A stretch of DNA of 64,000 bases from Clostridia bacterium (GTDB lineage Bacteria > Bacillota > Clostridia > Oscillospirales > CAG-272), in NCBI GenBank assembly GCA_017467105.1, contig JAFTSU010000028.1, forward strand, positions 15,217 to 79,216. The letters run 5' to 3'. The notes beneath the pieces are model-generated. The model worked only from the letters and a program-made list of their open reading frames with translations. It did not search any database and was not told where the DNA came from. A program made the position numbers and the translations under genes. Positions 6,968-58,656 of the stretch are shown in pieces. Every line of letters starts with the position of its first letter. Position 1 is the stretch's first letter.

Positions 6968-7150
6968 ATTTTAACCTCGAGAGAAGTATTTAAAACAATT
7001 ATAACACCGGGCACAAATGCTGTCAATAATAATTATCGCATTACAATTTATCATTTCGTCTCACGGTCCTTGACACAGAAAAGAAAAATTGATATAATTA
7101 CGATCGTGGCGGTTATTTAATTGAACTATTACTTTGGAACGGAGGAAAAC

Positions 7151-12943: not shown

Positions 12944-12972
12944 TTGACAAAGCGTTAAAATTAGTATATAAT
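12944..12972 (+). promoter_or_regulatory. Consensus sigma-A promoter of proS
   Basis: TTGACA (12944-12949), 17 nt, TATAAT (12967-12972). The leader is only about 35 nt, so there is no room for a T-box. Confidence 0.75.
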
Positions 12973-25398: not shown

Positions 25399-25427
25399 TT
25401 GACAATCCCATATGTATTGAGTATAAT
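25399..25427 (+). promoter_or_regulatory. Consensus sigma-A promoter driving the T-box leader
   Basis: TTGACA (25399-25404), 17 nt, TATAAT (25422-25427). Confidence 0.8.
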
Positions 25428-25435
25428 ATACCTAA

Positions 25436-25698
25436 CAAGCAGTGACGCGGAAAAAGTAACGCAAATGACGCATTTACAGAGAAGAGAGATTAGGTGCGAG
25501 CTCTCAATGATAATTTGCGCGAAGCAGTCCGCCAGCACAGGACGAGAAAGGTATCATAAGTCCTGCGGGGTGCCCGTTACAGCACAGGGTGATGGTAGTC
25601 ACCTACAGAGGAATATTCCGTGAGGAATATTCAAAATACGGTGGTAACACGCATATGCGTCCGTAGCATACCAATATTGGTGTGGTGCGGACTTTTTT
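25436..25698 (+). promoter_or_regulatory. T-box riboswitch leader, apparent Ala (GCA) specifier
   Basis: Stem I elements: AGUA (25455-25458), AG bulge AGAGAAGAGAG (25478-25488), distal loop GGUGCGA (25493-25499). The 3' side of the specifier loop reads C-GAA-GCA-G (25520-25527). It is flanked by helices GCGGA/UCCGC and CGCAAAU/AUUUGCG. F-box CCGUUA (25574-25579). T-box GGUGGUAACACGC (25640-25652). Terminator hairpin 25659-25692 plus U6. Confidence 0.8.
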
Positions 25699-25857: not shown

Positions 25858-26340
25858 ATGAACACTAAAATTCTGAAGCTTATTGAAAACAACGCACGCC
25901 TTGAAGCACGGGATATAGCCGCGGCTCTTGCCATAGAAGAGGATGACGTAAAAAGAGAGATAGCCGCCATGGAGCGAGCAGGTATTATCAGAGGATATAA
26001 GAGCATTATAGACTGGGGAGAGGCTGACCGAAATGAAGTATCAGCTCTTATAGAGCTGAAGGTCGTTCCCGTCGCGGGACTAGGCTTCGAGGAGGTGGCT
26101 GAAAGGATAGCAAAATATCCGTCTGTGGAGTCGGTTTCGCTGATGTCGGGAGTATGCGATCTGCTGGTTACTGTGAAAGGAAAAAGCTTTCAGGAGGTCT
26201 GCTCCTTCGTGGCAAACGAGCTGGCGGTAATAGAGGGTGTGTCATCCACCTCGACACAGTTCGTTATGCGTAAATACAAGGAGTGGGGCGTGGAGCTTCT
26301 GGGCAATGAGGATGACGGAAGGAGTAAGATCTCGCTATGA
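25858..26340 (+). CDS. Lrp/AsnC-family transcriptional regulator (AlaR-like)
   Basis: 160 aa with an N-terminal HTH (LKLIENNARLEARDIAAALAIEEDDVKREIAAMERAGII) and a C-terminal RAM/ligand domain. It overlaps the next gene (ATGA). Confidence 0.8.
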   Translation: MNTKILKLIENNARLEARDIAAALAIEEDDVKREIAAMERAGIIRGYKSIIDWGEADRNEVSALIELKVVPVAGLGFEEVAERIAKYPSVESVSLMSGVCDLLVTVKGKSFQEVCSFVANELAVIEGVSSTSTQFVMRKYKEWGVELLGNEDDGRSKISL

Positions 26341-27524
26341 TAGATTACGGCAGGATGCTCTCGGATGCTGTGCGTGAGATAAAGCCGTCCGGCATCCGCA
26401 AATTTTTCGATATCGCTAATACTATGGAGGACGTTATCTCCTTGGGAGTCGGAGAGCCGGATTTTCGAACACCATGGCAGATCCGATCCGCAGGAATACG
26501 CTCGCTTGAAAGGGCAAGCACAAGATACACCGCTAACCGAGGGTTGAGCAAGCTGCGTGAGAGCATCGCGGATTATACCGAAAGGCACATCGGAGTAAGA
26601 TACGATCCGGAAAAGGAAATACTTGTCACAGTTGGTGGAAGCGAGGCTATAGATATGGCCATCAGAGCTCTTGTGAACCCCGGTGACGAGGTGATCATCC
26701 CCCAGCCGTCCTACGTTTGCTACGAGCCGATCACAAGGCTCTCCGGCGGAGTGCCCGTTATAATCAGAACGAAGGAGGAAAACGGATTCAAGGTAACGCG
26801 GGAGGAGCTTTCCGATAAGATCACGGACAAGACGAAGGTGCTGATCCTTCCCTACCCCTCAAATCCTACGGGCGCTATAATGGAAAGAGAGGATCTTGAG
26901 GCAATTGAGGAGGTTCTCGGAGACACCAACGTTACGGTCATATCCGACGAGATATACTCAGAGCTTACCTATGGTAAAAGACACGTTTCCCCCGCTGAGA
27001 TCGAGGGACTTCGCGAAAGATGCATCGTTGTAAACGGCTTCTCCAAGGCATTCTCAATGACCGGCTGGCGTCTTGGCTACGCTATGGGTCCAAGAGAGCT
27101 TATCGGCGCTATTACCAAGATCCATCAGTTTGCGATAATGTGCGCTCCAACCACTTCTCAATACGCGGCAGTTGAGGCACTCACGTCCTGTGAGGAGAAC
27201 GTACGGGAGATGGTAAAGGAATACGACACTAGACGAAGATTTATTGTTGACGGCTTTAACAAGCTGGGGTTGGAATGCAGAGAGCCCCTTGGCGCGTTCT
27301 ACGCCTTTCCGTCTATCAGATCAACGGGAATGTCCTCTGATGAGTTTTGCGAGAAGCTACTCTATTCAAAGGGAGTTGCGCTTGTACCGGGAACCGCCTT
27401 CGGCGAGGGCGGAGAGGGCTACGTCCGAGCGTCTTATTGCTATTCCTTTATGCATATCAAGGAGGCTCTTCGGCGTGTCGGCGAGTTTCTGTCTGAGCTT
27501 CGAAAAAATAAACAACGTGAATAA
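26337..27524 (+). CDS. Class I PLP aminotransferase (AlaT/YugH-like, probable alanine aminotransferase)
   Basis: 395 aa. Motifs GVGEPDF, NPTG and NGFSKAFSMTGWRLGY (PLP lysine). The context with an Lrp regulator and an Ala-type T-box matches Bacillus subtilis alaR-alaT. Confidence 0.75.
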   Translation: MIDYGRMLSDAVREIKPSGIRKFFDIANTMEDVISLGVGEPDFRTPWQIRSAGIRSLERASTRYTANRGLSKLRESIADYTERHIGVRYDPEKEILVTVGGSEAIDMAIRALVNPGDEVIIPQPSYVCYEPITRLSGGVPVIIRTKEENGFKVTREELSDKITDKTKVLILPYPSNPTGAIMEREDLEAIEEVLGDTNVTVISDEIYSELTYGKRHVSPAEIEGLRERCIVVNGFSKAFSMTGWRLGYAMGPRELIGAITKIHQFAIMCAPTTSQYAAVEALTSCEENVREMVKEYDTRRRFIVDGFNKLGLECREPLGAFYAFPSIRSTGMSSDEFCEKLLYSKGVALVPGTAFGEGGEGYVRASYCYSFMHIKEALRRVGEFLSELRKNKQRE

Positions 27525-39468: not shown

Positions 39469-39508
39469 AGACCCGACATCTACTCAATAGAGTGAGAGTG
39501 TCGGGTCT
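39469..39508. terminator. Hairpin between the convergent MATE and TPM genes
   Basis: AGACCCGACA (39469-39478) pairs with TGTCGGGTCT (39499-39508). Confidence 0.65.
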
Positions 39509-39514: not shown

Positions 39515-40234
39515 TTATCTTCTGCCCCTGGATCCGCCGCTTCTGCCACCGGATCTGCCTGAGGAAGAACTGATCCTGGTTCTGACAACGTTGGATCCGA
39601 GGAATGCGTCATTGGAATAGGTAAGATTCATATTGGCATATCTGGACAGAGGATATGAGGGAGATTTAAGCTTCTTCTTATATCTCACAACAACCACGGT
39701 AACGGCAATTCCGCCGCTGATCAAGGCGATAACGATAGGCCAAACAATAGCGCTGATACGGGCGGCATTACGAGCGGAGATAAGCACCTCCTCCGTAACG
39801 GAGGTAAATGCGAGAATACCCTCGGCAAGATTGCCGGACTTGATATTGTAGTATACCTCATCCGTATCAAGAATGTAATCGGCATCAGAATCGCTGATGA
39901 GACTGTAGGCATCACCGTACGTATAGAGCTCGTAATAGTAGATGGAGTGATCCAGCTCTATCTCTAAAAGCACCACGTCATCCGAATCACTGACACCGAA
40001 TTCTGAAAGCATGGTGTACTCGGATGCATATCCATCGGAGTGAATATACACGAAAAACTCGACACGGGTAGCCTCTTTAGCACTATTCAGAGCAGATTCG
40101 ATAGTCTGAGTATCACTGCTAAGGAGACTGTCACCGTCGTAGATGGGGGACTGACGCGAGGCGGATGAAGTGATAATCAAGGCAGGGAGAAGCGCACTAA
40201 AGATCAGTAAAGCAAGCACTAAACGTTTCATCAT
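39515..40234 (-). CDS. TPM-domain membrane protein (YgcG/YdjH-like) with Gly/Ser/Arg tail
   Basis: Signal peptide MMKRLVLALLIFSALL. TPM-like core (IYDGDSLLS..., VEFFVYI, VVLLEIELD..YYYELYTYGD.., GNLAEGILAF). TM helix ISAIVWPIVIALISGGIAVTVVVV. Tail SSSSGRSGGRSGGSRGRR. ATG 40234 is preferred (GGGGGA SD); the track start is 40246. Confidence 0.6.
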   Translation of the reverse strand: MMKRLVLALLIFSALLPALIITSSASRQSPIYDGDSLLSSDTQTIESALNSAKEATRVEFFVYIHSDGYASEYTMLSEFGVSDSDDVVLLEIELDHSIYYYELYTYGDAYSLISDSDADYILDTDEVYYNIKSGNLAEGILAFTSVTEEVLISARNAARISAIVWPIVIALISGGIAVTVVVVRYKKKLKSPSYPLSRYANMNLTYSNDAFLGSNVVRTRISSSSGRSGGRSGGSRGRR

Positions 40235-41280
40235 AGCATCCCCCATCCTATAAGAAATGACACGATACCGACGGCAAGTGAAACCAGGCCTCCGAGAATC
40301 GCAAGCTTTGGAATGCTGACGGGTAGCTCGCCGTAGATTTTGCCTGTGGAACCATTCATAGCGTAAAGATAATTTTTACCCTTGCGCATGTAGTTAAGTA
40401 TCCATATCGGTGTAAGAGCATACTCCCAGTGGCTCTTCTCTACAGAGACGGAGGTGGACTTGGAGTCCACGGAGGAATAGCCCACGACGGTGGATGAAAG
40501 AAGGGACTCGGCGTAGCTCGTCATCTTACCGCGCACGTCCTCTGTGAGATCCTCTCTGGAAAGGTCACGCTTTTTCGCCTGATAGCCCTGAAGATAGGGT
40601 ATGCTGAAATCAAGATACTCATCGGTAGGATACGGCAGAATACCCTCCAGCATTGCCTTATCCTCCGTGGATATGGCGGAGGAGGAAATATCCTCAAAGT
40701 GGATATTGGCGCGACGGGTTATTGCGTAATGGGAGGTCTCCGTGTATCTGTAATTTCCCTGTCTCCACGAGCGCACCTTACGTGCCTTGGCATTCATACC
40801 TGCACTGCTGTCTGCATCAACAACCCAGAAGGGATAGTAAATACCGCAAATCTTGTCGGAATGCTCGGGAGAAAAGTAATCCTTGGGCAGAAACCACTTT
40901 TTCTTGCAATAATCGCGGAAAATCTTCTTTGCCTCATCCTTATCAAATTTAAAGGGTATGATCTTGGTGGGACGGAAAGCGCCCGAGACTCTGTCGGAAA
41001 GAACTATGGGGTTATGGCAATAGTAGCAGAAATCTGCAACGGTGGATTTGTCTGTCAGGATCTCTGCACCGCAGCTATCGCAATGGTACTCGCGAAGCTC
41101 GGAGCGAAATTCGTCCTCCGCCCGTTCTGCCTCCTCGGCACGCTTGTCTGCACCGCTTAAGCGAAGCTCGTCCTCGGTAAAGGAGGATATGCAGAAGTCA
41201 CAGCTGAAGCTTTGCTTCTCTGCATCAAAAACCAAGCCTGCGCCGCAATTCGGGCATTTATAAGTAACTGTAGCGCTCAT
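40231..41280 (-). CDS. Zinc-ribbon membrane protein (YdjG-like)
   Basis: 349 aa. Two ribbons: CPNCGA..17..CDFC and CDSCGA..13..CYYC. About 230 aa of soluble domain, then a C-terminal TM helix LAILGGLVSLAVGIVSFLIGW. Confidence 0.55.
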   Translation of the reverse strand: MSATVTYKCPNCGAGLVFDAEKQSFSCDFCISSFTEDELRLSGADKRAEEAERAEDEFRSELREYHCDSCGAEILTDKSTVADFCYYCHNPIVLSDRVSGAFRPTKIIPFKFDKDEAKKIFRDYCKKKWFLPKDYFSPEHSDKICGIYYPFWVVDADSSAGMNAKARKVRSWRQGNYRYTETSHYAITRRANIHFEDISSSAISTEDKAMLEGILPYPTDEYLDFSIPYLQGYQAKKRDLSREDLTEDVRGKMTSYAESLLSSTVVGYSSVDSKSTSVSVEKSHWEYALTPIWILNYMRKGKNYLYAMNGSTGKIYGELPVSIPKLAILGGLVSLAVGIVSFLIGWGML

Positions 41281-41301
41281 ATTGTTAGCCCTTTTGTTTA
41301 A

Positions 41302-42564
41302 TTATTTTTTGTGTCCGCACTCAGAGCAGAATTTAGAGGAAGCGGTATTCTCCTTGCCGCACTCGGTACAGAACCAAGAGGAGGCGGGCTTGGAGGCACC
41401 GCACTCGGAGCAGAATTTGCCTGTACATACGTTACCGCAGGAGCAGGTCCAGCTGTCAGAGGTGGGCTTTTTCGCTCCGCATTCAGCACAGAACTTACCC
41501 TCGTTAACGACTCCGCAGGAGCAGGTCCAGCCATTTTTCTTTGCCTGCTTATCTGCTCTGTCCATTTCCATCTGTCTGCGGTTGGTTTCCGACGCGCCTG
41601 CCATAAATCCGCCGCCCGCGTTCATGCCGAAGCCCATACCCATAAATGCCTGGGACGCGCCTGCGCTGTTGGAGCCTGCCGCCTCAAAGCCACGGGCGAT
41701 AGATCCCTGAACGTATCCCTCGCGTACGGTGGCGTCGCCAAGCATCGCGCCCTTGTTGCGCATATTAATAAGCTCCTTGGACTCGTCATCGTAGGAAACG
41801 CTGGCAACGCCTACGGACTGAACCTCGAAGCCGCGAGCGTTACGCCAGGACTCGTCAAGCTCCGTCGCCATATACTGCGACAGCTCTCTGGATTTTGAGG
41901 CTACGTGTGAAATACGGATGCCGTCAACGCTCATCTTATTGATAGCGGCAGTTAATGCCTCCAGAAACTCGGAAAGATACTGCTCGTTGATCTCTGTGAT
42001 GTCAACTCTGTCAGAATTCTTGGGTATTGCCTCTGTGTAGAACTTTATCGGGTCGGTAATCTTGATAGAATAGGTTCCGTGGGCGCGAAGGAAAAGCTCT
42101 GCGTTGTAGAAGGAGTCGAAATAATTAACGGGGGTTCTGGTACCGAACTTAATGCCCTTGATCTCCTGGAGATTTATGAAGTACGCCTTCTGCGAATACG
42201 AGGGGGTTCCGCCAAATTTTATACGGCGAAAAGCATCCTTGATAGCCTCTCCAAACTGACCTGCGAAGAGAGAGGGCGTTGCGCTGTTATCTACCTTATA
42301 GTAGCCCTCCTCTGCGGTAAAGTCGATGACCTTGCCGCCCTCAACAAGCAACATAAACTGACCGGGATAAACGTGAATGACCGAGCCGTTGGATATGGTA
42401 TCCTCCGTGCCTTTTTTATTAGATGAACGCTTGTCTGACGCGCGAACCTTCACGCCCCGTGTGAATACGGTGGTATCGCCCATTTCATCTGCTTCTATTA
42501 CCTCAAGCCACTGATCTGCAAGCGCGCCGCCGATAGCCGAGAAGGTCGCTCTGATAATTCCCAT
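41302..42564 (-). CDS. SPFH/Band-7 'virion-core-like' protein (YdjI/COG4260-like) with three C-terminal zinc ribbons
   Basis: 420 aa. N-terminus MGIIRATFSAIGGALADQWLEVIE... and the SPFH body are typical of the YdjI family. A Gly/Met-rich linker is followed by WTCSCG..KFCAECG, WTCSCG..KFCSECG and WFCTECG..KFCSECG. Confidence 0.7.
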   Translation of the reverse strand: MGIIRATFSAIGGALADQWLEVIEADEMGDTTVFTRGVKVRASDKRSSNKKGTEDTISNGSVIHVYPGQFMLLVEGGKVIDFTAEEGYYKVDNSATPSLFAGQFGEAIKDAFRRIKFGGTPSYSQKAYFINLQEIKGIKFGTRTPVNYFDSFYNAELFLRAHGTYSIKITDPIKFYTEAIPKNSDRVDITEINEQYLSEFLEALTAAINKMSVDGIRISHVASKSRELSQYMATELDESWRNARGFEVQSVGVASVSYDDESKELINMRNKGAMLGDATVREGYVQGSIARGFEAAGSNSAGASQAFMGMGFGMNAGGGFMAGASETNRRQMEMDRADKQAKKNGWTCSCGVVNEGKFCAECGAKKPTSDSWTCSCGNVCTGKFCSECGASKPASSWFCTECGKENTASSKFCSECGHKK

Positions 42565-42567
42565 ATT

Positions 42568-43419
42568 TTAAACTCCTTTTGATTTTTCTTTTATTATACT
42601 ATGCTGATTTTTACTTGTCAAGTGATTTTTCTTGTACTTATACGGGGTCTGTCCGTATTTTTCCCTGAAGAGCCTTATGAAATAGCTGGTGTCCTCAAAG
42701 CCTGATTCAAGAGCGATCTCGGTAACCGGCATATCGGTGCTCCGAAGAAGCTTTTCCGCACAAAGAAGCTTGAGATCGTTACAGTACGCGCGAAGCGATC
42801 TGCCGGTCTTTTTTTTAAAAAGGTGGCTTACGTAGGAGTTGCTTCTGCCGAGCTTTCGCGCAATTTTCTCAAGAGAAACGTCTATTGGAGAATTGGAAAT
42901 GTACTTTAACATATCGTTTATCTCTCCCCGCTCGTCTTCCTGCTCGGGGAGCACCTTCTCGAGCATCAGACAAAGTGGAGGAATAAGCGTATCCGTCAGG
43001 CGAAGGGGAATCTCGTCTGAGGAAAGTGCATCCGTCCAAAGGATTCCGTCATAGCGTTCGCCCTCGCCGCCCTTATAGCCGCTTACGCTGACAAAGCCTA
43101 CCGCCTCTCCGTTATGACGTAAGGGGTAAGCAACCTCCGTTGCGGCGGCGTAGCAGGTATGTACCACCCTGTCCTTATCACGAAGCTCTCTCATAATCTG
43201 ACGGTTATTCTCCTTGCACCTCTCGTGCAGCAGGGGGTTGGAGCAGTGGATAGATCGGCAATAGGGATTGTTGTGAGAGCGATACGGCAAAAGAGCCGCC
43301 AGAGTATCCTCGTTTGCAAGCTCGTACATTTTCTCGGAAAGATGAACGAAAACGTAAAGCCCTTCCCTTTCTATAAGATGATCCATATATGCGGTGACTT
43401 TTTCTATGTATTTTCCCAT
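42568..43419 (-). CDS. AraC-family regulator with N-terminal PocR-type sensor domain
   Basis: The C-terminal double HTH includes SNSYVSHLFKKKTGRSLRAYCNDLKL..A..LL..T...V.EIALESGFEDTSYFIRLFREKYG.TP. The N-terminal Cys/His-rich region (HTCYAAATEVAYPLRHNGEAVGFVSVSGY) looks like PocR. ATG 43419 is preferred because the track start 43476 sits on the predicted transcription start. Confidence 0.75.
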   Translation of the reverse strand: MGKYIEKVTAYMDHLIEREGLYVFVHLSEKMYELANEDTLAALLPYRSHNNPYCRSIHCSNPLLHERCKENNRQIMRELRDKDRVVHTCYAAATEVAYPLRHNGEAVGFVSVSGYKGGEGERYDGILWTDALSSDEIPLRLTDTLIPPLCLMLEKVLPEQEDERGEINDMLKYISNSPIDVSLEKIARKLGRSNSYVSHLFKKKTGRSLRAYCNDLKLLCAEKLLRSTDMPVTEIALESGFEDTSYFIRLFREKYGQTPYKYKKNHLTSKNQHSIIKEKSKGV

Positions 43420-43478
43420 TTTGCATTTTCTTTCTATTTTCAAGCATTTTATTACTAGAAAATGTTGTTTACCCATAG

Positions 43479-43511
43479 TATAATTATAACGAAAAGGCTT
43501 AAATTTGTCAA
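43479..43511. promoter_or_regulatory. Back-to-back divergent promoters (araC operon / FAD-oxidoreductase operon)
   Basis: Minus strand: TTGACA (43511-43506), 17 nt, TATAAT (43488-43483). Plus strand: TATAAT (43479-43484) with a weak -35 TAGAAA (43456-43461). The two -10 boxes overlap by 2 bp. Confidence 0.6.
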
Positions 43512-43523: not shown

Positions 43524-45278
43524 ATGCTTGAAAGAAAAGAGATACGATGCGACCTTTGCGTTATCGGAGGCGGAATTGCGGGAATTTGCGCTGCGGTTTC
43601 GGCGGCAAGAGAAGGCTCGACAGTCGTTCTTATGCACGAGCGACCCGTGCTTGGCGGAAACGCATCATCCGAAATAAGAATGTGGATCTGCGGAGCGCGC
43701 GGAAAGGATAACAAGGAGACGGGTATTCTTGAAGAAATATTCCTGGAGAACGCTTACAGAAATCCCACTAAGAATTTTGCTATCTGGGACACCGTCCTTT
43801 ACGAGATCGTAAAGCGCGAGAGGAATATTACTCTATTACTTAACTGCACCTGTATGGATGCGGTGACAGAGGAGGGTGATTTTGCCGACGGGCGAACCGT
43901 CAGAATCAAGAGTGTTTGCGGATATCAGATGACGACGCAGAAATTCTTCGACGTTACGGCAGACTTCTTTGCCGACTGCTCGGGCGACAGTATTCTCGCG
44001 CCTCTTACAGGCGCAAGCTTCAGGATAGGAAGAGAGTCGAAGCAGGAGTTTGGAGAGAACATTCGCCTTGAAGAGTCAGACTCGATGACGATGGGTATGT
44101 CCTGCCTTATTCAGGGCAGAGAGACACACGGGGAGGTTGAGTATACTCCGCCCGCCTTTGCTACGCCACTTACAGCGGAGAACTTCATCGGTCGCGACCC
44201 CGACCTATACAAGGAAACCGAAAACTTCTGGTATCTTGAGCTTGGGGGCGACAGAGACTCTGTCGGTGACACCGAAGAGATACGGGACGAGCTTGTAAGT
44301 CTTGCGGCGGGTACTTGGGACTACGTTAAGAATAAGAGCGACGGAAAGGCGGCGAACTGGGATCTTGATTTCCTCGGATTCCTTCCCGGAAAGCGTGAAT
44401 CAAGACGAATGATGGGCGAATATATCGTCACCGAAAGAGATATTTCGGCAAACAGGGTCTTTGAGGACGAGGTAGCATACGGCGGTTGGCCATTAGACGA
44501 TCATCTCCCCGGCGGATTCTTCATCAAGGGCGCTTACTGGTCGAGCCTTGAGGTCGATCCTCCCTATTCTATTCCCTATCGGGCACTATATTCAAAGAAC
44601 GTGGAAAACCTGTTCTTTGCGGGAAGGAATATCAGTATGACTCACACGGCAATGAGCAGTATGCGGGTCATGGCTACCTGCGGTCTCCTCGGCGAGGCGG
44701 TTGGAAGGGCGGCAACACTCTGCGTAAAATACCGTCTTGCTCCTCACGGTGTATACAAGGAAAGGCTTACGGAGCTTCAGGAAAGCCTCCTTAAGGGTGA
44801 CTGCTTCTTACCCTCGAAGAAGAGGAAGATCGGGGCGGCGTGTCTTGCGTCAGAGCTTAACGCTCCCGACCTTCTCCGCAACGGAGAGGACAGAGCCCAC
44901 AGGATATACGGCACAACCGACGAGAGCGCGCAGTATATTGCAAAGGAGGGAGAGGAGATAATTTACCGTTTCGATAAAGGAAGAGTGAATGAGGTTCATA
45001 TTGTATTTTCAAGCGACCTCGCTAACAGACCTCTTGCCACGAGAGCCAACGTAAGGCTGGACGCTCCACTTCATCATCTGCCGACTACCCTCGTAAAGGA
45101 CTTCGCCGTTTACGGTGAGCTTGAAGGCAAAAGAAAAGAGCTTCTCTCGGTGGAAAACAACCGAAAAAGATGCCACCATATAAACGTAGGAGAGGAATTC
45201 GACTCGCTTATTCTCGTTCCGAAAAAAGGAAGAAGCGATGATCGTTCCATTCCCGTAATTTCCTTTGATTTTGTTTAA
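43524..45278 (+). CDS. FAD-dependent oxidoreductase (FAD_oxidored family, CAZyme-associated type)
   Basis: 584 aa. N-terminal Rossmann motif CDLCVIGGGIAGICAAVSAAREG and the downstream LGGNASSE motif. Confidence 0.7.
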   Translation: MLERKEIRCDLCVIGGGIAGICAAVSAAREGSTVVLMHERPVLGGNASSEIRMWICGARGKDNKETGILEEIFLENAYRNPTKNFAIWDTVLYEIVKRERNITLLLNCTCMDAVTEEGDFADGRTVRIKSVCGYQMTTQKFFDVTADFFADCSGDSILAPLTGASFRIGRESKQEFGENIRLEESDSMTMGMSCLIQGRETHGEVEYTPPAFATPLTAENFIGRDPDLYKETENFWYLELGGDRDSVGDTEEIRDELVSLAAGTWDYVKNKSDGKAANWDLDFLGFLPGKRESRRMMGEYIVTERDISANRVFEDEVAYGGWPLDDHLPGGFFIKGAYWSSLEVDPPYSIPYRALYSKNVENLFFAGRNISMTHTAMSSMRVMATCGLLGEAVGRAATLCVKYRLAPHGVYKERLTELQESLLKGDCFLPSKKRKIGAACLASELNAPDLLRNGEDRAHRIYGTTDESAQYIAKEGEEIIYRFDKGRVNEVHIVFSSDLANRPLATRANVRLDAPLHHLPTTLVKDFAVYGELEGKRKELLSVENNRKRCHHINVGEEFDSLILVPKKGRSDDRSIPVISFDFV

Positions 45279-45321: not shown

Positions 45322-47274
45322 ATGCTTAAAATTAACAAGATCTCAAGCGGTTCGGCGATTGATTTTGCCGCAGAGGAATTGAAGAAATATCTGCGTATGA
45401 TGATGCCCGAGGAGAATGACGTTGAGATTGATTTCAATCCTTTAGCAACCGACGGTTTCAGGCTCGGTCTGTTTTCCGATCTCAGAATTTCGGGCGAGGT
45501 AGAGGACGAGAAATTCGACGATTATCTTTACGCGGAGTGCGACGGGCGCGGCGGCGTTATTGCGGGAATCAACGCAAGAAGCGTGCTTCTTTCCGTTTAC
45601 GAATATTTAAGGCAAAACGGGCTTCGTTGGCTCTTCCCCGGCCCCGACGGCGAGTACATACCCGTCAAAGAAATCAATGCGGTAAGCTTTAAGATCAAGC
45701 CCTCCTGCCGTTACAGAGGATTTGCAAACACTACCGCGGCTTCCTACCAAAACAACCTCGATCTTATCGACTTCCTTCCCAAGATCGGAATGAACACCTT
45801 TATGGTAGAATTCCGCGTTCCCGTCTTTTATACCAACAATTACTACGAGCATAAAAGGAATGCGAAAAACAGAGCACCCGAAAAGCCTACCAACACCACT
45901 ATTCTTCAGTGGAAGAGAGGCACCGAGTGCGAGGCGGCAAAGAGAGGTCTCGTTTTCCATGACGTAGGACACGGCTTCTGCATTGATTCCTTCGGGATTG
46001 ACTCTTGCCATTCCTGGAATCTTACCGACGAGTCGGCTATCCCCGAAGAGGCTAGAAAATACCTTGCAGAGGTTGGAGGCAAGAAGGGCTTCTTTCAGGG
46101 AGTACCCATCAACACTAACTTCTGCATGTCAAACCCCGAGGCAAGAGGAATGGTGGCAAAATACGTTGCGGATTACGCCGAGGGACATAAGAACGTTGAC
46201 GTTCTTCACGTTTGGCTCTCCGACGGCACTAACAACCACTGCGAGTGCGTAAGCTGCCAAAAAAAGACCGCCTCAGACTGGTACGTTGACCTTCTCAACA
46301 ATATCGACGAGGTAATGACGGGAAGAAATATTGATACGAAAATCGTTTTCCTCTCCTACGTTGACACCTCTTGGGCGCCTACCGAGTCGAAGATAAAAAA
46401 TCAGGACAGATTCGTATTTATGCTCGCACCCTTTACCCGCTCCTACTACGACAGTATTCCTAAAGGCGAAATTCCCGAAACCTCCTCGAGGTACGAGAGA
46501 AACAAGGTTTACCTCGCAAGAACACTAGAGGAATTCTTAGGCTTCTATAACGATTGGCGAGAAGATTTCAAGGGTCCCGCCTTCGCCTTTGAATATCACT
46601 TCTGCTGGAACGAATACGACGACCTTTCCCGCTTCAAGCACGCAAAGCTTATCCACGACGAGATCTGCCTTTATCACAAAATGGGTATCAGCGGCGTGGT
46701 CGAGGACGGAGATATGAGAGCCTTTCTTCCGAACGGCTTACAGATGTATACTCTCGGAAGAACTCTCTTCGATACCGCCCTTTCCGCCGAGGAGATAGCA
46801 GAGGATTACTTCCGCCACGCATACGGCAAGGAATATGATAAATTTGCAGATTTCTTAAAAAAGCTTGAAGAGGTAATCCCCTTCGCTTACCTTGCTAAAA
46901 GGGCTTCGGCAAACCCCAAGGTCTCGGTCTACTATAATCCGGAGATTGCCGAAAGGATAGAAAAGGAGCTTGACGGTGTTCTCAGAGATGGTGAGCAGCT
47001 TGTTAAGAGCCGTTACAACAGTGATGTAAGAATTGAAACGGTGTCGGTAAGACTGCTTGAGCATTACATTGAGCTTGTAAGATGGTTTGGCAGACTTATT
47101 GCAAAGAAGGCGGTGGGAAACGAAGAGGAGGCGAAGGCTATCTACAATGAATTTGAAGAATACTTCGGCAAAAGGGAGTGCGAAATTGAAAGATACTTCA
47201 ATCATTGCTTCTTCTTCAGTTTCTTACATTATATCGTTTTTGACAACACGACGAATCTTGAATTCGTCCTTTAA
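45322..47274 (+). CDS. DUF4838-like protein (GH20/GH67-related fold, putative glycosidase)
   Basis: About 650 aa. The N-terminal SAIDFAAEELKKYLRMM signature recalls DUF4838. ATG 45322 with AGAGGTG SD is preferred over track start 45265, which overlaps the upstream gene. Confidence 0.45.
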   Translation: MLKINKISSGSAIDFAAEELKKYLRMMMPEENDVEIDFNPLATDGFRLGLFSDLRISGEVEDEKFDDYLYAECDGRGGVIAGINARSVLLSVYEYLRQNGLRWLFPGPDGEYIPVKEINAVSFKIKPSCRYRGFANTTAASYQNNLDLIDFLPKIGMNTFMVEFRVPVFYTNNYYEHKRNAKNRAPEKPTNTTILQWKRGTECEAAKRGLVFHDVGHGFCIDSFGIDSCHSWNLTDESAIPEEARKYLAEVGGKKGFFQGVPINTNFCMSNPEARGMVAKYVADYAEGHKNVDVLHVWLSDGTNNHCECVSCQKKTASDWYVDLLNNIDEVMTGRNIDTKIVFLSYVDTSWAPTESKIKNQDRFVFMLAPFTRSYYDSIPKGEIPETSSRYERNKVYLARTLEEFLGFYNDWREDFKGPAFAFEYHFCWNEYDDLSRFKHAKLIHDEICLYHKMGISGVVEDGDMRAFLPNGLQMYTLGRTLFDTALSAEEIAEDYFRHAYGKEYDKFADFLKKLEEVIPFAYLAKRASANPKVSVYYNPEIAERIEKELDGVLRDGEQLVKSRYNSDVRIETVSVRLLEHYIELVRWFGRLIAKKAVGNEEEAKAIYNEFEEYFGKRECEIERYFNHCFFFSFLHYIVFDNTTNLEFVL

Positions 47275-47291: not shown

Positions 47292-48872
47292 ATGAAGGAT
47301 TTTAACGCTCGCGACTACGTTCTTTCGCTTACCGACGAGGAACTTTGCGGCGAGGTGCTTTCCTGGGAATTTACTCAAAGCACTACGAACGAGGAGCTGC
47401 TGAGGACGGTTAAGGAGAGTAAGATATCAAGCTTTTTTGCCAACAATCTTACTACAGAACAGATAGAATTTCTAAAAAAGGCTATAAAGGAAAATACCAA
47501 GTCGCCATGCCTTATTACGGCGGACGTGGAGAGAGGACCTATCCTCTTCCCCGCTCTTAAGGACTTTTCCACAAGTATGATGAGCCTTGGAGCGGCAGAC
47601 GACAAGGAGCTTGCCTTTGAGGTAGGAAAATATACCGCAAGGCTTTCAAGAGCTATAGGAATAGGTCTGACCCTTTCGCCCGTAATAGACGTTAATTATA
47701 ACGCTAACAACCCCGTAACCAACACGAGAGCCGCATCCGACGATCCTGAAACGGTGCTTAACTCCGCTTGCGAGTACGGGAGAGGCATGCGCAGCGAGGG
47801 CAACCTTGCTATTACATTAAAGCACTTCCCCGGCGACGGACTTGACGATAAAAACCAGCACTTCTCTACCACGGTAAACTCCAAGAGCTTCGAGGATTGG
47901 AAGGCAACTTACGGAAGACTCTATAAGACGATGATAGCCGAGGGGGCTGAGGCAATTATGTCGGCGCATATTGCGCTTCCCTGCTACGACGGTAGCTGCG
48001 ACGAGCTTGGGTATATGCCCGCATCCCTCTCGAAAACTCTGATGACCGATCTTCTTAAGGGTGAGCTTTCGTTTGACGGCTGTATAATTTCCGACGCTAT
48101 GAGCATGGTGGGTACGGCAGCAAGAGTTCCCGTGGAAAGGCTTTCGGTTGAATTCCTCCGAGCGGGGGGCGACCTGGTTCTATTCCCGGAAAAAAACGAC
48201 CACAGGAGAATTCTCGAGGCTCTTCATTCGGGATATCTTGAAAGAGAAAGGCTTCTTGACGCGGCACAGAGAGTCGTAAGGCTTAAGTACAAGCTCGGAC
48301 TCTTTGACGGAGCGAATTATAATCTCACCGACGAGGACGTTGACCGTATGAAATCACTCCTTTCCGAGGTGGCAAGAAGGAGCCTGACGCTTGTCAGGGA
48401 TATTGATAATATCCTTCCTTTAAATCTCAAGAATGGAGCGAAGGCTCTCGTGATTACGCTTTCTCCGAGGGAGAAAGGCTACTCCGGAGACGATTTCCCC
48501 TTCTTTGCGGATGAGCTTGAGAAAAGAGGCTACGAGGTAATAAGGCTGACTAATCCTACCCACTACCTCATCGACATGCTTATTGAAAAGGTTGACGCGG
48601 TGTTCGTCAATTCGATCATCGATACCTCAAACTGCTCGGGCAACAGCCTGAGGCTTGGATGGAACAACATGATGACCTTCTGGAGGGGATATATCTTCAA
48701 AAATAAAAACCTTGTATTCACCTCCTTTGGCGACCCATACAAGCTGACCGAGCTTCCCTTCCTTAAGTGCTATATCAATGCCTATATTAAGTCGGGCGCC
48801 GCAGCAAGGGCGGTTGTTGACGCAGTCCTTGGGAAAAATGAGTTCGTGGGCAAAAGCCCTGTTAGACTATAA
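47292..48872 (+). CDS. Glycoside hydrolase family 3 (NagZ/beta-hexosaminidase-like, two domains)
   Basis: 526 aa. KHFPGDG motif and nucleophile region GCIISDAMSM. Confidence 0.8.
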   Translation: MKDFNARDYVLSLTDEELCGEVLSWEFTQSTTNEELLRTVKESKISSFFANNLTTEQIEFLKKAIKENTKSPCLITADVERGPILFPALKDFSTSMMSLGAADDKELAFEVGKYTARLSRAIGIGLTLSPVIDVNYNANNPVTNTRAASDDPETVLNSACEYGRGMRSEGNLAITLKHFPGDGLDDKNQHFSTTVNSKSFEDWKATYGRLYKTMIAEGAEAIMSAHIALPCYDGSCDELGYMPASLSKTLMTDLLKGELSFDGCIISDAMSMVGTAARVPVERLSVEFLRAGGDLVLFPEKNDHRRILEALHSGYLERERLLDAAQRVVRLKYKLGLFDGANYNLTDEDVDRMKSLLSEVARRSLTLVRDIDNILPLNLKNGAKALVITLSPREKGYSGDDFPFFADELEKRGYEVIRLTNPTHYLIDMLIEKVDAVFVNSIIDTSNCSGNSLRLGWNNMMTFWRGYIFKNKNLVFTSFGDPYKLTELPFLKCYINAYIKSGAAARAVVDAVLGKNEFVGKSPVRL

Positions 48873-49196: not shown

Positions 49197-49922
49197 TTAA
49201 TTATCCCAGTTAGTGAATACCGCGTTAACGTCGTCATCCTCGTTGAACTTATCGAGCATCTTCTCCATATTCTCGATATCGTCCTCTGAGGTGAGCTCAA
49301 CGTACGTAGAGGGAACCTTGGCAAGATCGGCTGTGTTGATCTTGTAGCCGAGAGCGATAATGGCATCACGGACGGAATCAAGATCCTGAGGATCGGTGTA
49401 GATAGAGTACTCACCCTCGTCGGAGCGGATATCCTCTGCGCCGCACTCGAGAGCATCCTCCATTATCTTATCCTCGTCTATCTCCTCATCCTCGTCTACG
49501 ATAGTTATAACGCCCTTCTCCTCGAAAAGATAGCCTACGCATCCGTTCTGTCCCAGGTTGCCGCCGTACTTGGAGAATGCGGCGCGAACGTTACCTGCGG
49601 TACGGTTGCGGTTGTCGGTAGATGTCTCTACGATGATGGCTACACCTGATGGACCGTAGCCCTCGTACACTATCTCCTCGTAGTTTATATCACTGTTGTC
49701 CGTGAACTTTTTGATAGTGCGCTGAATGTTGTCGTTGGGAACGTTGTTCGCCTTTGCCTTTGCTATCAGATCGCGAAGCTTGGAGTTGTTATTTGGGTCC
49801 GGTCCTCCCGCCTTGATAGCTACTGCCATCTCCTTACCTATCTTAGTAAAGATCTTCGCCTTGGCAGCGTCGGATTTCTCCTTCTTGTGCTTGATGTTAT
49901 TCCACTTGGAATGTCCTGACAT
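49197..49922 (-). CDS. yebC: YebC/PmpR-family transcriptional regulator
   Basis: 241 aa with the hallmark N-terminus MSGHSKWNNIKHKK. Confidence 0.9.
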   Translation of the reverse strand: MSGHSKWNNIKHKKEKSDAAKAKIFTKIGKEMAVAIKAGGPDPNNNSKLRDLIAKAKANNVPNDNIQRTIKKFTDNSDINYEEIVYEGYGPSGVAIIVETSTDNRNRTAGNVRAAFSKYGGNLGQNGCVGYLFEEKGVITIVDEDEEIDEDKIMEDALECGAEDIRSDEGEYSIYTDPQDLDSVRDAIIALGYKINTADLAKVPSTYVELTSEDDIENMEKMLDKFNEDDDVNAVFTNWDN

Positions 49923-50083
49923 AGTTTTTACGTGGGTCCTCAGAGGAAGACCGTATCTCCTTTTTTATTTATTAACTGGAACGTGGTGAAAGAGATGCAG
50001 GTAAGCCGTTTTGCCCGCATTCATCGGATAAAGGTCCTGCTCATAAGGTAAAACGTTTTATGAAACAGGTGAGGAGAAGCAGA

Positions 50084-51838
50084 TCAAATCTTCTCCGGGC
50101 TCTGCATACAGATAAGGTGAAGAGCCGTTTTCAGAACCTGATTGGTTGCTGCGGTGAGCGCTATTCTGCTCTGCTTTAAGTCATTATTTTCGCAATTTGC
50201 TATGCTGCACTCGTGATAGAAGCGATTGAATGCGGCACAAAGATCAAGTATATATCTGGTAACCACGGAGGGCTCGTAATCCGCGAGCGCCTGAATGATC
50301 CTTTCCGGGAATGCGGCGAGAGTTTTGGCAAGCGCGCTCTCGTGCTCGCCAAGAGGGGCATCGGTCATAGCCGCATCTCTGCCCACCTTCTCAAGAACCG
50401 AGCAGGTTCTGGCGTAGGTGTACTGAGCGTATGGACCCGTATTACCGTCGAAGGAAAGGGCATCCTCCATCATAAAGTTGATGTCACGCATACGGTTGTT
50501 GGAGAGATAATAGAAGACAATAGCTCCAACGCCAACCGACTCCGCAATGCGTCTGCACTGCTCCTCGTCGGGATTCTTCTCTTTTGCAATCTCCATAACT
50601 CTGGCTATTGCCTCGCTGAATAGGTCCTTCAGTAGAATAACGTTACCCGTTCTGGTAGCCAGCTTTGCTCCGTTGATGCTGACCGTACCGTAGGGCACGT
50701 GAACAAGCTTATCGTACCAATCATAGCCCATAAGCTCAACCACCTTGAACCACTGAGCGAAGTGAAGAGACTGCGCCGCGCTGGTCACGTAGATAGCCTT
50801 ATCGAAGCCGTACTCTCCCTTTCGATATACGGCGGCGGCAATATCACGGGTGGGATAGAGTGTGGAGCCGTCACGCTTAAGAATAAGGCATACGGGCATA
50901 TTCCACTTATCAAGATTTACGATAGACGCGCCGTCGTCGATCTCCAGAAGCCCCATATTACGAAGCTTTTCTACCTGGGCGGGCATTTTGTCAGTGTAGA
51001 AGGACTCGCCCTTATAGCTGTCAAACTCTATGCCAAGAAGCTTATAGGTCTTCTGATATTCCTCAAGGCTTACGTCAACGAACCAGCGCCAGAGAGCAAG
51101 ATTTTCCTCGTCTCCCTGCTCAAGCTTGGAAAACTCCTTACGCGATGCGTCGCCAAGCTCGGAATGCTTCGGAGTACCCTCGGGCTTATCCTGAACGGAG
51201 GTATCCTCCTCCGCCTTGATCTCGTTATTTATCTTAACGTAAAGCTTAACCAGCTCGTCAACTCCACCCTTCTCTATGGTGGATCTATCGCCCCAGAGCT
51301 TATACGCGACTATAAGCTTACCAAACTGAGTTCCCCAATCGCCAAGATAGTTGATGCCAACACACTTGTAGCCGGCGAACTCGTGAAGCAGCTTCAGGGA
51401 GTGACCTATTACGGTAGTGCCGAGATGTCCTATATGAAATGGCTTTGCAACGTTGGGAGAGGAGTAATCCAGAACCACTGTTTTGCCCTCTCCGGTATGA
51501 GGAGAGCCGTAACTGTCAGCCTGAGACTGTATGTCGCTTACTACCCTCTTAGCGAAGGAGGTAGGCTCGGTCTTAATATTAAGATAGCCGTTTACGGCGG
51601 CAACCTCGGAAAGCTCGCTATCGGAGATCGCGCCGGCAAGTGTGTCAGCGATCTGGACGGGTGAGCGACGGAGGCTGCGTGAAAGCTTGAAGCAAGGAAG
51701 AGCGAGATCTCCCATCGCCTTATCCGGAGGATATTCGAGCATAGCGGCAAGCTCTGCCGCGGTAAGTATGTCTGAGCCGAAATTGTCGGCTATGGCGCCT
51801 GCTATAAGGGAGGCAACCTTATTCTTTAGAGTTAGCAT
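50084..51838 (-). CDS. argS: Arginyl-tRNA synthetase
   Basis: Class I HIGH-type motif (PNVAKPFHIGH) and the DALR anticodon-binding C-terminus. ATG 51838 (GAGG SD, MLTLKNKV...) is preferred over the TTG track start at 51853. Confidence 0.95.
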   Translation of the reverse strand: MLTLKNKVASLIAGAIADNFGSDILTAAELAAMLEYPPDKAMGDLALPCFKLSRSLRRSPVQIADTLAGAISDSELSEVAAVNGYLNIKTEPTSFAKRVVSDIQSQADSYGSPHTGEGKTVVLDYSSPNVAKPFHIGHLGTTVIGHSLKLLHEFAGYKCVGINYLGDWGTQFGKLIVAYKLWGDRSTIEKGGVDELVKLYVKINNEIKAEEDTSVQDKPEGTPKHSELGDASRKEFSKLEQGDEENLALWRWFVDVSLEEYQKTYKLLGIEFDSYKGESFYTDKMPAQVEKLRNMGLLEIDDGASIVNLDKWNMPVCLILKRDGSTLYPTRDIAAAVYRKGEYGFDKAIYVTSAAQSLHFAQWFKVVELMGYDWYDKLVHVPYGTVSINGAKLATRTGNVILLKDLFSEAIARVMEIAKEKNPDEEQCRRIAESVGVGAIVFYYLSNNRMRDINFMMEDALSFDGNTGPYAQYTYARTCSVLEKVGRDAAMTDAPLGEHESALAKTLAAFPERIIQALADYEPSVVTRYILDLCAAFNRFYHECSIANCENNDLKQSRIALTAATNQVLKTALHLICMQSPEKI

Positions 51839-51849
51839 ATTTACCTCTG

Positions 51850-52671
51850 TCAAAGAGAATTTTTCATTTTTACGAAGCTTTTCACGTCTATCTCAGCAGG
51901 AGAAAGCACGCAAGGCACGTAGGTGTTCATATTAAAGGCGTATGCCAGAGCTGACTCAACCCCACCCGTCACGTAGAACTCGCCGTCCCTCTCGGTAACG
52001 GTAACGGCAGGTATAGCCTCTCCGGACTCGAGAGCCGCGGAATACGAGCCAACCGTCTGACTGTCTGCCTCGTCGTCGGGATAATTTAATCTATCAGGGG
52101 AGATAAACGCCGCCCTGAAGGACTTGTCCTCCTGCCAGCTGAGGAATGAGGATATTATACACTCGGCAACCTGATCGGGTGTGGCGTATGTGGTATCCAC
52201 TATAAGAGAATAGTTGCCGAGGTTCTTGATATCCACCCCATACTGCTCCATATATCGCTTCTGCTCGCTGGCGCGACGGGCGCGTGTATCACTGACCGTG
52301 TCCTCGAGGGTCGATGCGTGCTCGCCCTGTCTGTTGGCGTTCATAATGCGGAGAGCGCTGGTCTCTATGTCCGTGGAAAGATAAACGGAGAAGGTTCCCT
52401 TGGTAAAATGCCACGCCATACGGGAATCAATAACTAGTAGCTTGTCCACCTCGCCAAGCGCACGAAGACCGTCGTCTATCTCGTGATCTATCTCGGGATG
52501 GGTCTCCATATAGTGATTAAGCTCAACCACCGTCATGCCTCTGCGATCCGCAATGGAGCGAACTATAGCTCCCGTGGAGTAGTACTCTGCTCCAAGACGG
52601 GAAATTAGTATCTTGGATACCGTGCTTTTACCGCTTCCAAGATCGCCTGCCAGAGAAATTTTATCCTGCAA
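51850..52671 (-). CDS. Cytidylate-kinase-like P-loop kinase fused to a C-terminal ParB/sulfiredoxin-like domain
   Basis: 273 aa. P-loop GDLGSGKST at residues 9-17. The Cmk-like-family body includes VIDSRMAWH, YLSTDIETSALRI and LIVDTT. The last 85 aa or so (ISPDRLNYPDD...AIPAVTVTERDGEFYVTGGVESALAYAFNMNTYVPCVL) match the Srx/ParB pattern P.V.V...G..Y...GG.....A......VP..L. TTG start. Confidence 0.6.
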   Translation of the reverse strand: MQDKISLAGDLGSGKSTVSKILISRLGAEYYSTGAIVRSIADRRGMTVVELNHYMETHPEIDHEIDDGLRALGEVDKLLVIDSRMAWHFTKGTFSVYLSTDIETSALRIMNANRQGEHASTLEDTVSDTRARRASEQKRYMEQYGVDIKNLGNYSLIVDTTYATPDQVAECIISSFLSWQEDKSFRAAFISPDRLNYPDDEADSQTVGSYSAALESGEAIPAVTVTERDGEFYVTGGVESALAYAFNMNTYVPCVLSPAEIDVKSFVKMKNSL

Positions 52672-52725: not shown

Positions 52726-52754
52726 ATTATAATATATTTTTTAGCGGTTGTCAA
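52726..52754 (-). promoter_or_regulatory. Consensus sigma-A promoter of the cmk-like/argS operon
   Basis: Reverse strand: TTGACA (52754-52749), 17 nt, TATAAT (52731-52726). Confidence 0.75.
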
Positions 52755-53032
52755 CCGATTTCGGACAAGTTTATGGCTTTTTGTGCTTTTTATCCGCCCT
52801 CCAAGCGCATAAAAGCGAACGTCCGAATATCAAAACAACACGGGATCTCCTCAGTCTGATGTCGCTTACGTGTATTCTTTATTGATCTTCAGTGGCTGTG
52901 ATACTGAGGTGATATCTGATTATCTGCGGTAGAGGCGGAAAAAAGTTTTCTGATTTTTTCTTTTGTCGGAATATTTTTCAATTTAGGGGCAACAATACCA
53001 TCACCCAAAGTGATCAGGAAAGGAAATAAAAA

Positions 53033-53698
53033 ATGGACAAGAAATTCAACTTTAAGGAACAGCCCACCAAGGTCAAGATCCTGTACGGTGTTACCGTGGC
53101 TATTCTGTGCGTGACGGCAATCGTCATAGGCATCGTATCCGCCGCATCTAAAAAGGATGAGGTGGGCGGAGGCGAGGTACTTCCTCCCGTAAATGAAGGC
53201 GGTGAGAACGTAGGCGACGAGGGCGGTGAGAAGCCCGAGGAGCCCAAGGAAACAGTCTATATCGCTCCTACGGTTGGCGTGGTTTCCAAGTCTCACAGCG
53301 TTGAAACACCCGTTTTCTCCAATACTCTCGGAGAGTGGAGAATACACACGGGAATCGATATCTCGGCTGCTGAGGGCACCGAGGTAAGAGCTGTGGCGGA
53401 CGGCACGGTAAGCCGCGTATACAATCACCCGCTGCACGGCAAAACGGTGGAGATCACACATAACGGCGACGTTGTGAGCGTGTACTCCAATCTCTCGAGC
53501 GAGGGAATCACCGTAAAGGAGGGGGACAATATAAGCTGCGGCGCTAAGATCGGCGTGATCGGTGACACGTCGCTTACAGAGCTGGCGGACGAGTCCCACC
53601 TTCATTTTGAAATGAAGCTGAAGGGTGTAAGCGTTAATCCTCTGGATTATATTGAAGAGGAATCAAAAGCCGCATCTCTCGTAACGAGCGGCAACTAA
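53033..53698 (+). CDS. Membrane-anchored M23 (LytM) metallopeptidase; SpoIIQ-like architecture
   Basis: 221 aa. N-terminal TM ILYGVTVAILCVTAIVIGIV, a Gly/Glu-rich linker, and intact Zn motifs HTGIDI (HxxxD) and SHLHFEM (HxH). Confidence 0.8.
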   Translation: MDKKFNFKEQPTKVKILYGVTVAILCVTAIVIGIVSAASKKDEVGGGEVLPPVNEGGENVGDEGGEKPEEPKETVYIAPTVGVVSKSHSVETPVFSNTLGEWRIHTGIDISAAEGTEVRAVADGTVSRVYNHPLHGKTVEITHNGDVVSVYSNLSSEGITVKEGDNISCGAKIGVIGDTSLTELADESHLHFEMKLKGVSVNPLDYIEEESKAASLVTSGN

Positions 53699-53784: not shown

Positions 53785-53813
53785 TTGACATTCTCTCTCT
53801 TATGTGCTATAAT
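53785..53813 (+). promoter_or_regulatory. Consensus sigma-A promoter of hom
   Basis: TTGACA (53785-53790), 17 nt ending in TGC, TATAAT (53808-53813). Confidence 0.75.
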
Positions 53814-55261: not shown

Positions 55262-55744
55262 TCAGAACAAAAATTTATCGAGTATGGCGTAAATAAAGAA
55301 TATGCCGAAAATAGCGAACGTAACGATGGACGCTATGTTGAAGATCTTATCAAACCTTTTGTTTTTCTCCGCCTCTTTCTCGTCAAGGAGAACGTCCTCC
55401 GGATCCTCGCGCAGCTCCTCCGGAAGCTCGTCGGGCTCGTCAGACTCCCTCTCGTCAAGGGAGAAATCGTAGGTGCCGTCCTTAATGGCAACGGCTCGCT
55501 CGCCTGCATCCTTAAGTATATCCGACACAGTCTTCACTGTAATGGCGTCCGGGTCGCTGTCGGTCATTTTTTTGCTTATTCTATCCACCGCGAGTGAGAT
55601 CTCGTCAAAGCTCTCAGCCCCCGTGGCTATGTCAAAATCCCCGGCGCATTCGTCGCATAGGCAACGAGGCGTGCCGTATGCGCCTACCGTAAGGACGTGA
55701 GGATTCTCGTTCTCTATATGAACGCTGCAGATAGCACACTTCAT
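55262..55744 (-). CDS. Hypothetical tail-anchored zinc-ribbon protein
   Basis: 160 aa. CAIC...CLCDEC ribbon, an acidic linker (ERESDEPDELPEELREDPED) and a C-terminal TM IASIVTFAIFGIFFIYAIL. 4-nt overlap with the upstream gene. Confidence 0.5.
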   Translation of the reverse strand: MKCAICSVHIENENPHVLTVGAYGTPRCLCDECAGDFDIATGAESFDEISLAVDRISKKMTDSDPDAITVKTVSDILKDAGERAVAIKDGTYDFSLDERESDEPDELPEELREDPEDVLLDEKEAEKNKRFDKIFNIASIVTFAIFGIFFIYAILDKFLF

Positions 55745-58332: not shown

Positions 58333-58656
58333 ATGGTAAACTTAGCTGAAATTCTGGAAATCATTATGATAGTAAGCTTCGGCGCATCATGGCCTGCTAA
58401 CGTTCTGAAATCCTACAGAGCAAGGACTACAAAGGGAAAGAGCCTGATGTTTCTGTGTCTTATATTTTTCGGATACATAGCCGGCATCATTTCCAAGCTG
58501 GTTAACGAGGCTTATATGGCTGCTTTTGCAAGTAAATGGTACGTGCTAATATTCTACGTGCTTAATCTTATTATGGTTGGCTTGGATCTGTGTCTCTACT
58601 ACAGAAACTATCTGCTTGACAAAAAAGCGGCAGAGTGCAAGAGCGAAGGAAGATAA
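58333..58656 (+). CDS. Three-TM PQ-loop/SemiSWEET-like small membrane protein
   Basis: 107 aa with 3 predicted TM helices. TM1 ends ..SWPANVLKSYRARTTKGKSLMF, which resembles the PQ-loop motif (PQ..K.y..kst.g.S) with PA in place of PQ. Confidence 0.4.
   Translation: MVNLAEILEIIMIVSFGASWPANVLKSYRARTTKGKSLMFLCLIFFGYIAGIISKLVNEAYMAAFASKWYVLIFYVLNLIMVGLDLCLYYRNYLLDKKAAECKSEGR

Follow-up and report, generated by a model that had tools for sequence, protein, structure and literature searches.

The DNA analysed here is a 64,000-nt stretch of a Clostridia bacterium contig (JAFTSU010000028.1), the whole of which is called the window; all positions are given in window coordinates. The open reading frame (ORF) map of the window shows four tightly packed genes on the minus strand. 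In their order of reading they encode a PocR-type AraC-family regulator (283 aa; 42568–43419), an SPFH protein resembling YdjI/SamI (420 aa; 41302–42564), a tail-anchored zinc-ribbon (ZnR) protein resembling YdjG/SamG (349 aa; 40231–41280) and a TPM-domain membrane protein resembling YdjH/SamH (239 aa; 39515–40234). The question considered is whether the regulator is functionally tied to the three genes that follow it, hereafter referred to as the trio.

The araC stop codon TAA (42570–42568) is separated by only 3 nt from the ATG of the SPFH gene (42564), and the Shine-Dalgarno (SD) sequence of the latter, AAAGGAG (42579–42573), sits within the final araC codons. The gap between the SPFH and ZnR genes is 21 nt, and the ZnR stop codon and the TPM start codon overlap by 4 nt (ATGA). 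The trio is closed by an intrinsic terminator on the minus strand (39469–39508), which RNA folding showed to be a strong hairpin (−26.1 kcal/mol; z = −6.6 against 200 shuffles), followed by a U-run (UCUUUUUU). With MatE converging on the TPM gene from the other side, the hairpin may serve as a terminator for that gene as well. The same-strand layout, the tight junctions with the 3-nt gap, the SD within araC, the ZnR/TPM overlap and the hairpin at the end of the unit had all been described in the first-pass annotation of this DNA, and all were confirmed.

The expected profile matches, namely HTH_18, PocR, Band_7_1 and TPM_phosphatase, were recovered by Pfam. The SPFH protein matched Band_7_1 (1e-17) and Zn_Ribbon_1 (5e-7). 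It has no transmembrane (TM) segment; a G/A/M-rich low-complexity linker leads to three C-terminal CxC/CxxC ribbons (residues 348–416). More than 8000 homologues were found (3554 representatives at 50% clustering), and a sequence search against the PDB gave no match. The ZnR protein carries two N-terminal CxxC..CxxC ribbons (residues 9–30 and 67–88; four CxxC motifs) and one C-terminal TM segment (residues 319–349), and has 1403 homologues at E≤1e-5. The zinc ribbons anticipated for both proteins were thereby borne out by Pfam in the SPFH protein, but the match of the ZnR protein to Zn_Ribbon_TF was weak (4e-5) and fell below the cut-off. In an AlphaFold2 model of the ZnR protein (predicted local distance difference test 69.8) the beta-rich middle or core is well predicted; no fold match to this model was returned from the PDB. 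The TPM protein (TPM_phosphatase; 9e-9) shows two hydrophobic segments, an N-terminal signal or anchor (residues 1–27) and a second TM segment (residues 157–186), followed by a G/S/R-rich tail. In the predicted topology the TPM domain is extracytoplasmic and the tail cytoplasmic. The PADLOC models gave no significant defence-system match to any of the four proteins, the only match being that of a zinc ribbon to the candidate PDC-S64 (1.5e-4; 18.8 bits).

The promoter of the trio

A perfect sigma-70-type promoter (TTGACA-17-TATAAT; 12/12 consensus), overlooked in the earlier reading, is present on the minus strand at 42621–42593. It lies within the last 19 codons of araC, beyond the HTH domain, which ends at residue 264 of 283, and 28 nt separate its −10 box from the SPFH ATG. 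The first-pass annotation had proposed a single araC–trio transcript starting near 43476 and had named beforehand a separate promoter between araC and the SPFH gene as the finding that would speak against it; what was found between the two genes is a promoter both perfect and conserved.

The window holds eight perfect 12/12 sites (6998–7026, −; 7070–7098, +; 12944–12972, +; 25399–25427, +; 42593–42621, −; 43483–43511, −; 52726–52754, −; 53785–53813, +), where none is expected from dinucleotide shuffles. Each of the eight precedes a start codon or leader RNA on its own strand by 13–64 nt, one of them standing 6 nt ahead of a T-box leader. Their number against expectation and their positions before starts indicate that such sites behave like real promoters in this genome. 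The organism seems to use unusually canonical promoters.

When the DNA ahead of the SPFH gene was aligned for six lineages (the window and the related loci L005, L007, L008, L039 and L040), TTGAC and GTAnAnT showed no variation. This holds irrespective of whether araC (window, L007, L039, L040) or yebC (L005, L008) is the upstream gene, and the position of the promoter is also kept in L043, L044 and L050. L008 shows a terminator hairpin after yebC, then the promoter and then the SPFH gene. In L007 the araC stop codon falls within the promoter spacer, whereas in the window the araC frame reads on. A promoter matching at least 10/12 positions was found within 150 nt of the SPFH ATG in 26 of 86 loci as compared with 2.5% of random control segments, the 26 including every one of the nine closest relatives in which the upstream region is free; the lineage of L009 and L010 is without the conserved promoter. 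Judged by these alignments, the promoter at 42621–42593 is that of the trio and not of araC, and it is predicted to be active.

The −10 regions of the SPFH and FAD-oxidoreductase (FAD-ox) genes have an 11-nt stretch in common, CATAGTATAAT, but the idea that it represents a regulatory element of both was discarded. The stretch consists mostly of −10 consensus and, as read from alignment A6, is apparently not conserved in L007.

The regulator, its divergent partner and the yebC junction

The regulator matched HTH_18 (1e-23) and, partially, PocR (2.5e-7; 31.1 bits against a cut-off of 23.9; profile positions 37–100 of 162). It is not a PocR equivalog, scoring 84 bits with the NCBIfam model against a cut-off of 500. 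Its start at 43419 is conserved and agrees with the orthologue alignment A6. About 63 full-length AraC orthologues were identified (30–81% identity; 262–293 aa). They cover only 93–95% of the query and, hence, the tail which runs across the trio promoter (the last ~19 residues) is not conserved. The distance between araC and the SPFH gene amounts to 3 nt in the window, 49 nt in L007, 42 nt in L039 and 122 nt in L040. The translational coupling, or wiring, of the regulator to the trio that had been put forward on account of this junction is not supported, the 3-nt gap being species-specific and the gaps of the orthologues ranging from 42 to 122 nt. A scan of JGI metagenomes with the AraC protein yielded nothing closer than remote relatives matching in the HTH alone (≤43% identity over ~85 residues).

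On its other side, araC stands back-to-back with a plus-strand operon whose genes were assigned by Pfam to FAD_oxidored (43524–45278), DUF4838 (45322–47274) and GH3 (Glyco_hydro_3; 47292–48872). In the promoter scan P(araC) showed perfect consensus (TTGACA-17-TATAAT; 43483–43511, −) and P(FAD-ox) a weak −35 box (TAGAAA-17-TATAAT; 43456–43484, +). The two −10 boxes overlap by 2 nt (43479–43484, +, versus 43483–43488, −), so that this part of the earlier description, a PocR-type AraC regulator divergent from a FAD-oxidoreductase/DUF4838/GH3 operon with overlapping −10 boxes, stands. The FAD_oxidored/DUF4838/GH3 cassette is uncharacterised and probably a glycan-related accessory unit.

The divergent FAD_oxidored gene is the one invariant neighbour of AraC orthologues, down to 36% identity. 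In L041 (42% AraC identity) and L042 (36%) it is found in divergent orientation while MatE or beta-lactamase/GDPD genes come after AraC and the trio is absent. The control region between araC and FAD_oxidored is likewise conserved in AraC orthologue loci, with or without the trio. Within the araC leader it contains a candidate AraC operator (43423–43450; no strand assigned), found by repeat search: two copies of AAAATGC (minus-strand reading; repeat family D4) at a spacing of 21 nt, a paired pattern which is unique in the window (0.03 expected) and abuts the weak −35 box of P(FAD-ox). No copy of the repeat was found near the SPFH promoter. The geometry is that of a classic AraC-family activator and auto-regulator, and the regulator probably binds there.

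The housekeeping genes cmk-like, argS and yebC are located on the minus strand at 49197–52671, just beyond the cassette. In L005, L008, L009/L010 and L044 (SPFH identity 76–82%) the trio directly follows cmk-argS-yebC, and L043 likewise shows cmk/argS/yebC synteny upstream of the trio. The araC/FAD-ox/DUF4838/GH3 cassette occupies this same junction in L007, L039 and L040, the latter two (50% AraC identity) reading argS-yebC-...-[GH3<-DUF4838<-FADox / AraC->]-trio, and it is absent from L005, L008, L009 and L044. A neighbour-joining (NJ) tree built from the SPFH protein shows lineages with the cassette interspersed among lineages without it. Given the fixed junction and this interleaving, the cassette looks like a patchy accessory island. 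A survey of relatives had been suggested earlier as a means of showing whether the araC adjacency is a one-off. It is not, being present in at least four lineages, but it is patchy, with the trio following yebC in L005, L008, L009 and L044. L050 was considered as a fifth araC-bearing lineage and discarded, its AraC gene matching in the HTH only (32% identity).

A 165-aa ORF lies between yebC and the SPFH gene in L009 and L010 (6502–6999 in both) and ends 1 nt before the SPFH ATG. It had no Pfam match and may represent an extra component of the module or another insertion at the same junction.

Two abutting units or one

In our view it is probable that two independent functional units abut here by chance and that the supposed wiring is most likely ordinary gene adjacency. 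The first unit would be the SPFH–ZnR–TPM operon (42564–39515), extending from its own promoter (42621–42593) to the terminator (39508–39469). The ZnR and TPM proteins would form a membrane complex which recruits the anchor-less SPFH protein; the latter would oligomerise and restrain or scaffold the complex in envelope-stress sensing or membrane homeostasis. This function, taken over by analogy from work on B. subtilis, would need no adjacent PspA. The second unit would be a carbohydrate cassette in which araC (PocR) diverges from FAD-oxidoreductase/DUF4838/GH3. Its regulator would most likely bind the 21-nt-spaced repeat by the weak −35 box, thereby activating the FAD-ox operon and regulating its own gene. 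In a patchy set of relatives this cassette lies between yebC and the trio promoter; in the species of the window the araC frame extends over that promoter and stops 3 nt short of the SPFH ATG. The wiring is unsupported because the trio has a promoter of its own, the araC tail is not conserved, the invariant partner of the regulator is FAD-ox and the cassette is patchy.

Several points weigh against two independent units. No terminator is present between araC and the SPFH gene, so that read-through from the strong araC promoter is to be expected and some regulator-linked expression of the trio may result from it. The araC–trio adjacency, recurring in at least four lineages, is no one-off. The function of promoter and operator is predicted from sequence, and the homology of the trio to B. 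subtilis YdjG/H/I is based on Pfam family and architecture, not on direct alignment. The term "patchy" goes back to an NJ tree that was built from one protein and lacks support values; being weak, this tree may be compatible both with one gain of the cassette followed by losses and with several gains.

The lack of an intervening terminator could also be accommodated by a mixed control, in which a constitutive promoter of the trio is boosted by incidental read-through from araC, resulting in a modest coupling without selected function. Both promoters are of perfect consensus and on the same strand, and the candidate operator is situated in the araC leader, so that its occupancy could modulate read-through. 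Nevertheless we consider mixed control rather unlikely: the adjacency is patchy within the clade, the sequence bears no sign of selection for coupling, and in L040 the two genes are 122 nt apart.

It is improbable that araC and the trio form one translationally coupled operon transcribed from ~43476, with the sensor replacing a control by envelope stress of the PspA/sigma-W type. The 3-nt gap with the SPFH SD inside araC codons, the missing terminator, the perfect araC promoter and the adjacency seen also in L007, L039 and L040 would all fit such an operon. They are confronted with a perfect, conserved promoter directly upstream of the SPFH gene, a tight junction that is species-specific, a regulator whose conserved partner is FAD_oxidored even where the trio is absent, a candidate operator found in the divergent region only, and equally close relatives in which the trio comes directly after yebC. 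It is similarly improbable that insertion of the cassette and the reading-on of araC created a real, ligand-dependent co-expression through read-through and ribosome hand-over at the 3-nt junction; if it were true, membrane scaffolding would be tuned to carbohydrate availability, a SamGHI-like module being linked to a glycan-utilisation operon.

Had a membrane-scaffold module indeed come under the control of a metabolite sensor, this would be a novel regulatory link; the evidence, however, speaks for a chance juxtaposition. We regard the trio as an ordinary representative of a SamGHI-like module that is widespread and has a promoter of its own.

Elsewhere in the window, a T-box leader (25433–25667, +; Rfam RF00230; 97 bits) is found directly after the perfect promoter at 25399–25427. 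It precedes a gene for an AsnC/Lrp-type regulator (25858–26340) and an overlapping gene encoding 395 aa (26337–27524); a T-box ahead of a transcription-factor gene is uncommon. Four ORFs of 107–263 aa (14486–15277, +; 52889–53605, −; 55262–55744, −; 58333–58656, +) had no Pfam match at E≤0.001.

Comparison with known systems

AraC/XylS regulators such as those of the AraC-pBAD, RhaS/RhaR and PocR types stand divergent from their catabolic operon. With these the regulator in the window shares the C-terminal double HTH, the N-terminal PocR-like ligand domain and the divergent promoters, as well as the 21-nt-spaced direct repeats at a weak −35 box; the target is probably a glycan-utilisation operon. 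It differs from the PocR type in scoring below the PocR equivalog cut-off and in matching PocR only partially.

Published work on B. subtilis describes YdjI/SamI as a protein that lacks an anchor and ends in a zinc finger behind a low-complexity linker. YdjG combines a pair of zinc ribbons with an NTF2-like (YpeB-related) domain and a TM segment, and YdjH is a TPM protein whose tail is of low complexity (Scholz et al. 2021, PMC8581546; Ravi et al. 2024, PMC11237479; Baur et al. 2026, preprint, 10.64898/2026.02.06.704340). YdjI is drawn to the membrane by YdjG and YdjH and in turn recruits PspA, the pspA-ydjGHI (pspA-samGHI) operon being sigma-W dependent; SamGH has been modelled as a stress sensor restrained by SamI, and PspA is dispensable for the samI phenotype (PMC8581546; PMC11237479; 10.64898/2026.02.06.704340). 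The three architectures encoded in the window match these published descriptions, as had been claimed when the genes were first likened to YdjI-YdjG-YdjH. The SPFH protein shares with YdjI/SamI the missing anchor, the low-complexity linker and the C-terminal ribbons, of which it has three. The ZnR protein shares with YdjG/SamG the two N-terminal ribbons, a middle domain and one TM segment, and the TPM protein shares with YdjH/SamH the TPM domain, residence in the membrane and the low-complexity tail. The mechanism is presumably that described for B. subtilis, with the membrane pair recruiting the SPFH protein. Differences concern the gene order, which is I-G-H in the window and G-H-I in B. subtilis, and the promoter, which is of the consensus sigma-A type rather than sigma-W dependent. 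No entry named as B. subtilis was present among the best 80 genome loci or the top-150 SPFH representatives.

A further difference lies in pspA, which is contained in the B. subtilis operon and is missing from the trio operon and from the entire 64 kb; the Psp (PspA-centred) system requires PspA/IM30 in the locus, and the window has none. The first-pass annotation had noted this absence, and all searches of the window upheld it: phmmer with E. coli PspA gave no match at E≤10, a 3-sequence PspA hidden Markov model (HMM) run with no filters gave a best E of 0.12 (7 bits), and Pfam scans of 20 mid-sized ORFs returned no PspA_IM30. As a positive control, the same HMM gave 359 bits with Paenibacillus PspA, and the PspA seed detected Firmicutes PspA in the form of two Paenibacillus paralogues (E = 9e-18 and 8e-8).

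The absence is no peculiarity of this DNA. A genome scan with a 9-sequence SPFH alignment yielded a best 80 loci at 55–80% identity from Oscillospiraceae, Lachnospiraceae, Hungatella, Bacillaceae, Enterococcus, Lactococcus and Tetragenococcus. Together with the earlier relatives and two annotated plasmid loci these make up a combined set of ~90 loci (Clostridia, Lactobacillales, Bacillaceae). Here the order SPFH, ZnR, TPM is kept in 75 of the 80 loci with enough downstream sequence, and in none of the ~90 does pspA occur within 10 kb. When 72 upstream neighbours were scanned with Pfam, PspA_IM30 was not among the recurrent families, the commonest of which was a Tim44-like plus zinc-ribbon membrane protein. 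Trios without PspA are the rule in the surveyed orthologous group.

The Tim44-like protein with C-terminal zinc ribbon is encoded directly upstream of the SPFH–ZnR homologues in L059 (1091–1870), L061, L069, L071, L085, L090, L095, L098, L096 and L103. A Tim44-like protein also occurs in L126 (4999–5985; Monoglobus, annotated "TIM44-like domain-containing protein"). As L096, L103 and L126 have it without the ZnR/TPM pair, it could be an alternative membrane anchor for the SPFH family. Another partner set for the SPFH subfamily is seen in L127 (2627–4122) and L128 (1136–2631). The Band_7_1 protein encoded there is only distantly related (37% identity; 359 aa), and the locus annotation lists no Zn_Ribbon family for it. 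Its gene overlaps by 4 nt with the preceding one, which encodes 139 aa of unknown family, and two TerC genes come after it. The neighbourhoods of the distant SPFH variants P0174 and P0237 contained small partner genes and TerC, and neither PspA nor an operon of the B. subtilis type.

The closest parallels are the stand-alone trios of Clostridia, Lactobacillales and Bacillaceae (e.g. Hungatella hathewayi and Halalkalibacterium halodurans), in which the SPFH protein is 55–80% identical, gene order and spacing are the same and pspA is lacking. In Enterococcus gallinarum, for instance, SPFH, hypothetical and TPM genes (PML87_RS12925-12935, RefSeq annotation) stand alone between dnaX and a gene for a pyridoxal phosphate (PLP) enzyme. 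The housekeeping neighbours of such trios vary, and the window differs from them only in its upstream neighbour, the araC/FAD-ox/DUF4838/GH3 cassette. It may thus be B. subtilis, with its well-studied linkage to pspA, that departs from the norm. In the surveyed group of ~90 loci the trio presents itself as an autonomous unit that has its own promoter and no pspA in its neighbourhood, which favours regarding SamGHI-like trios as an envelope module in their own right.

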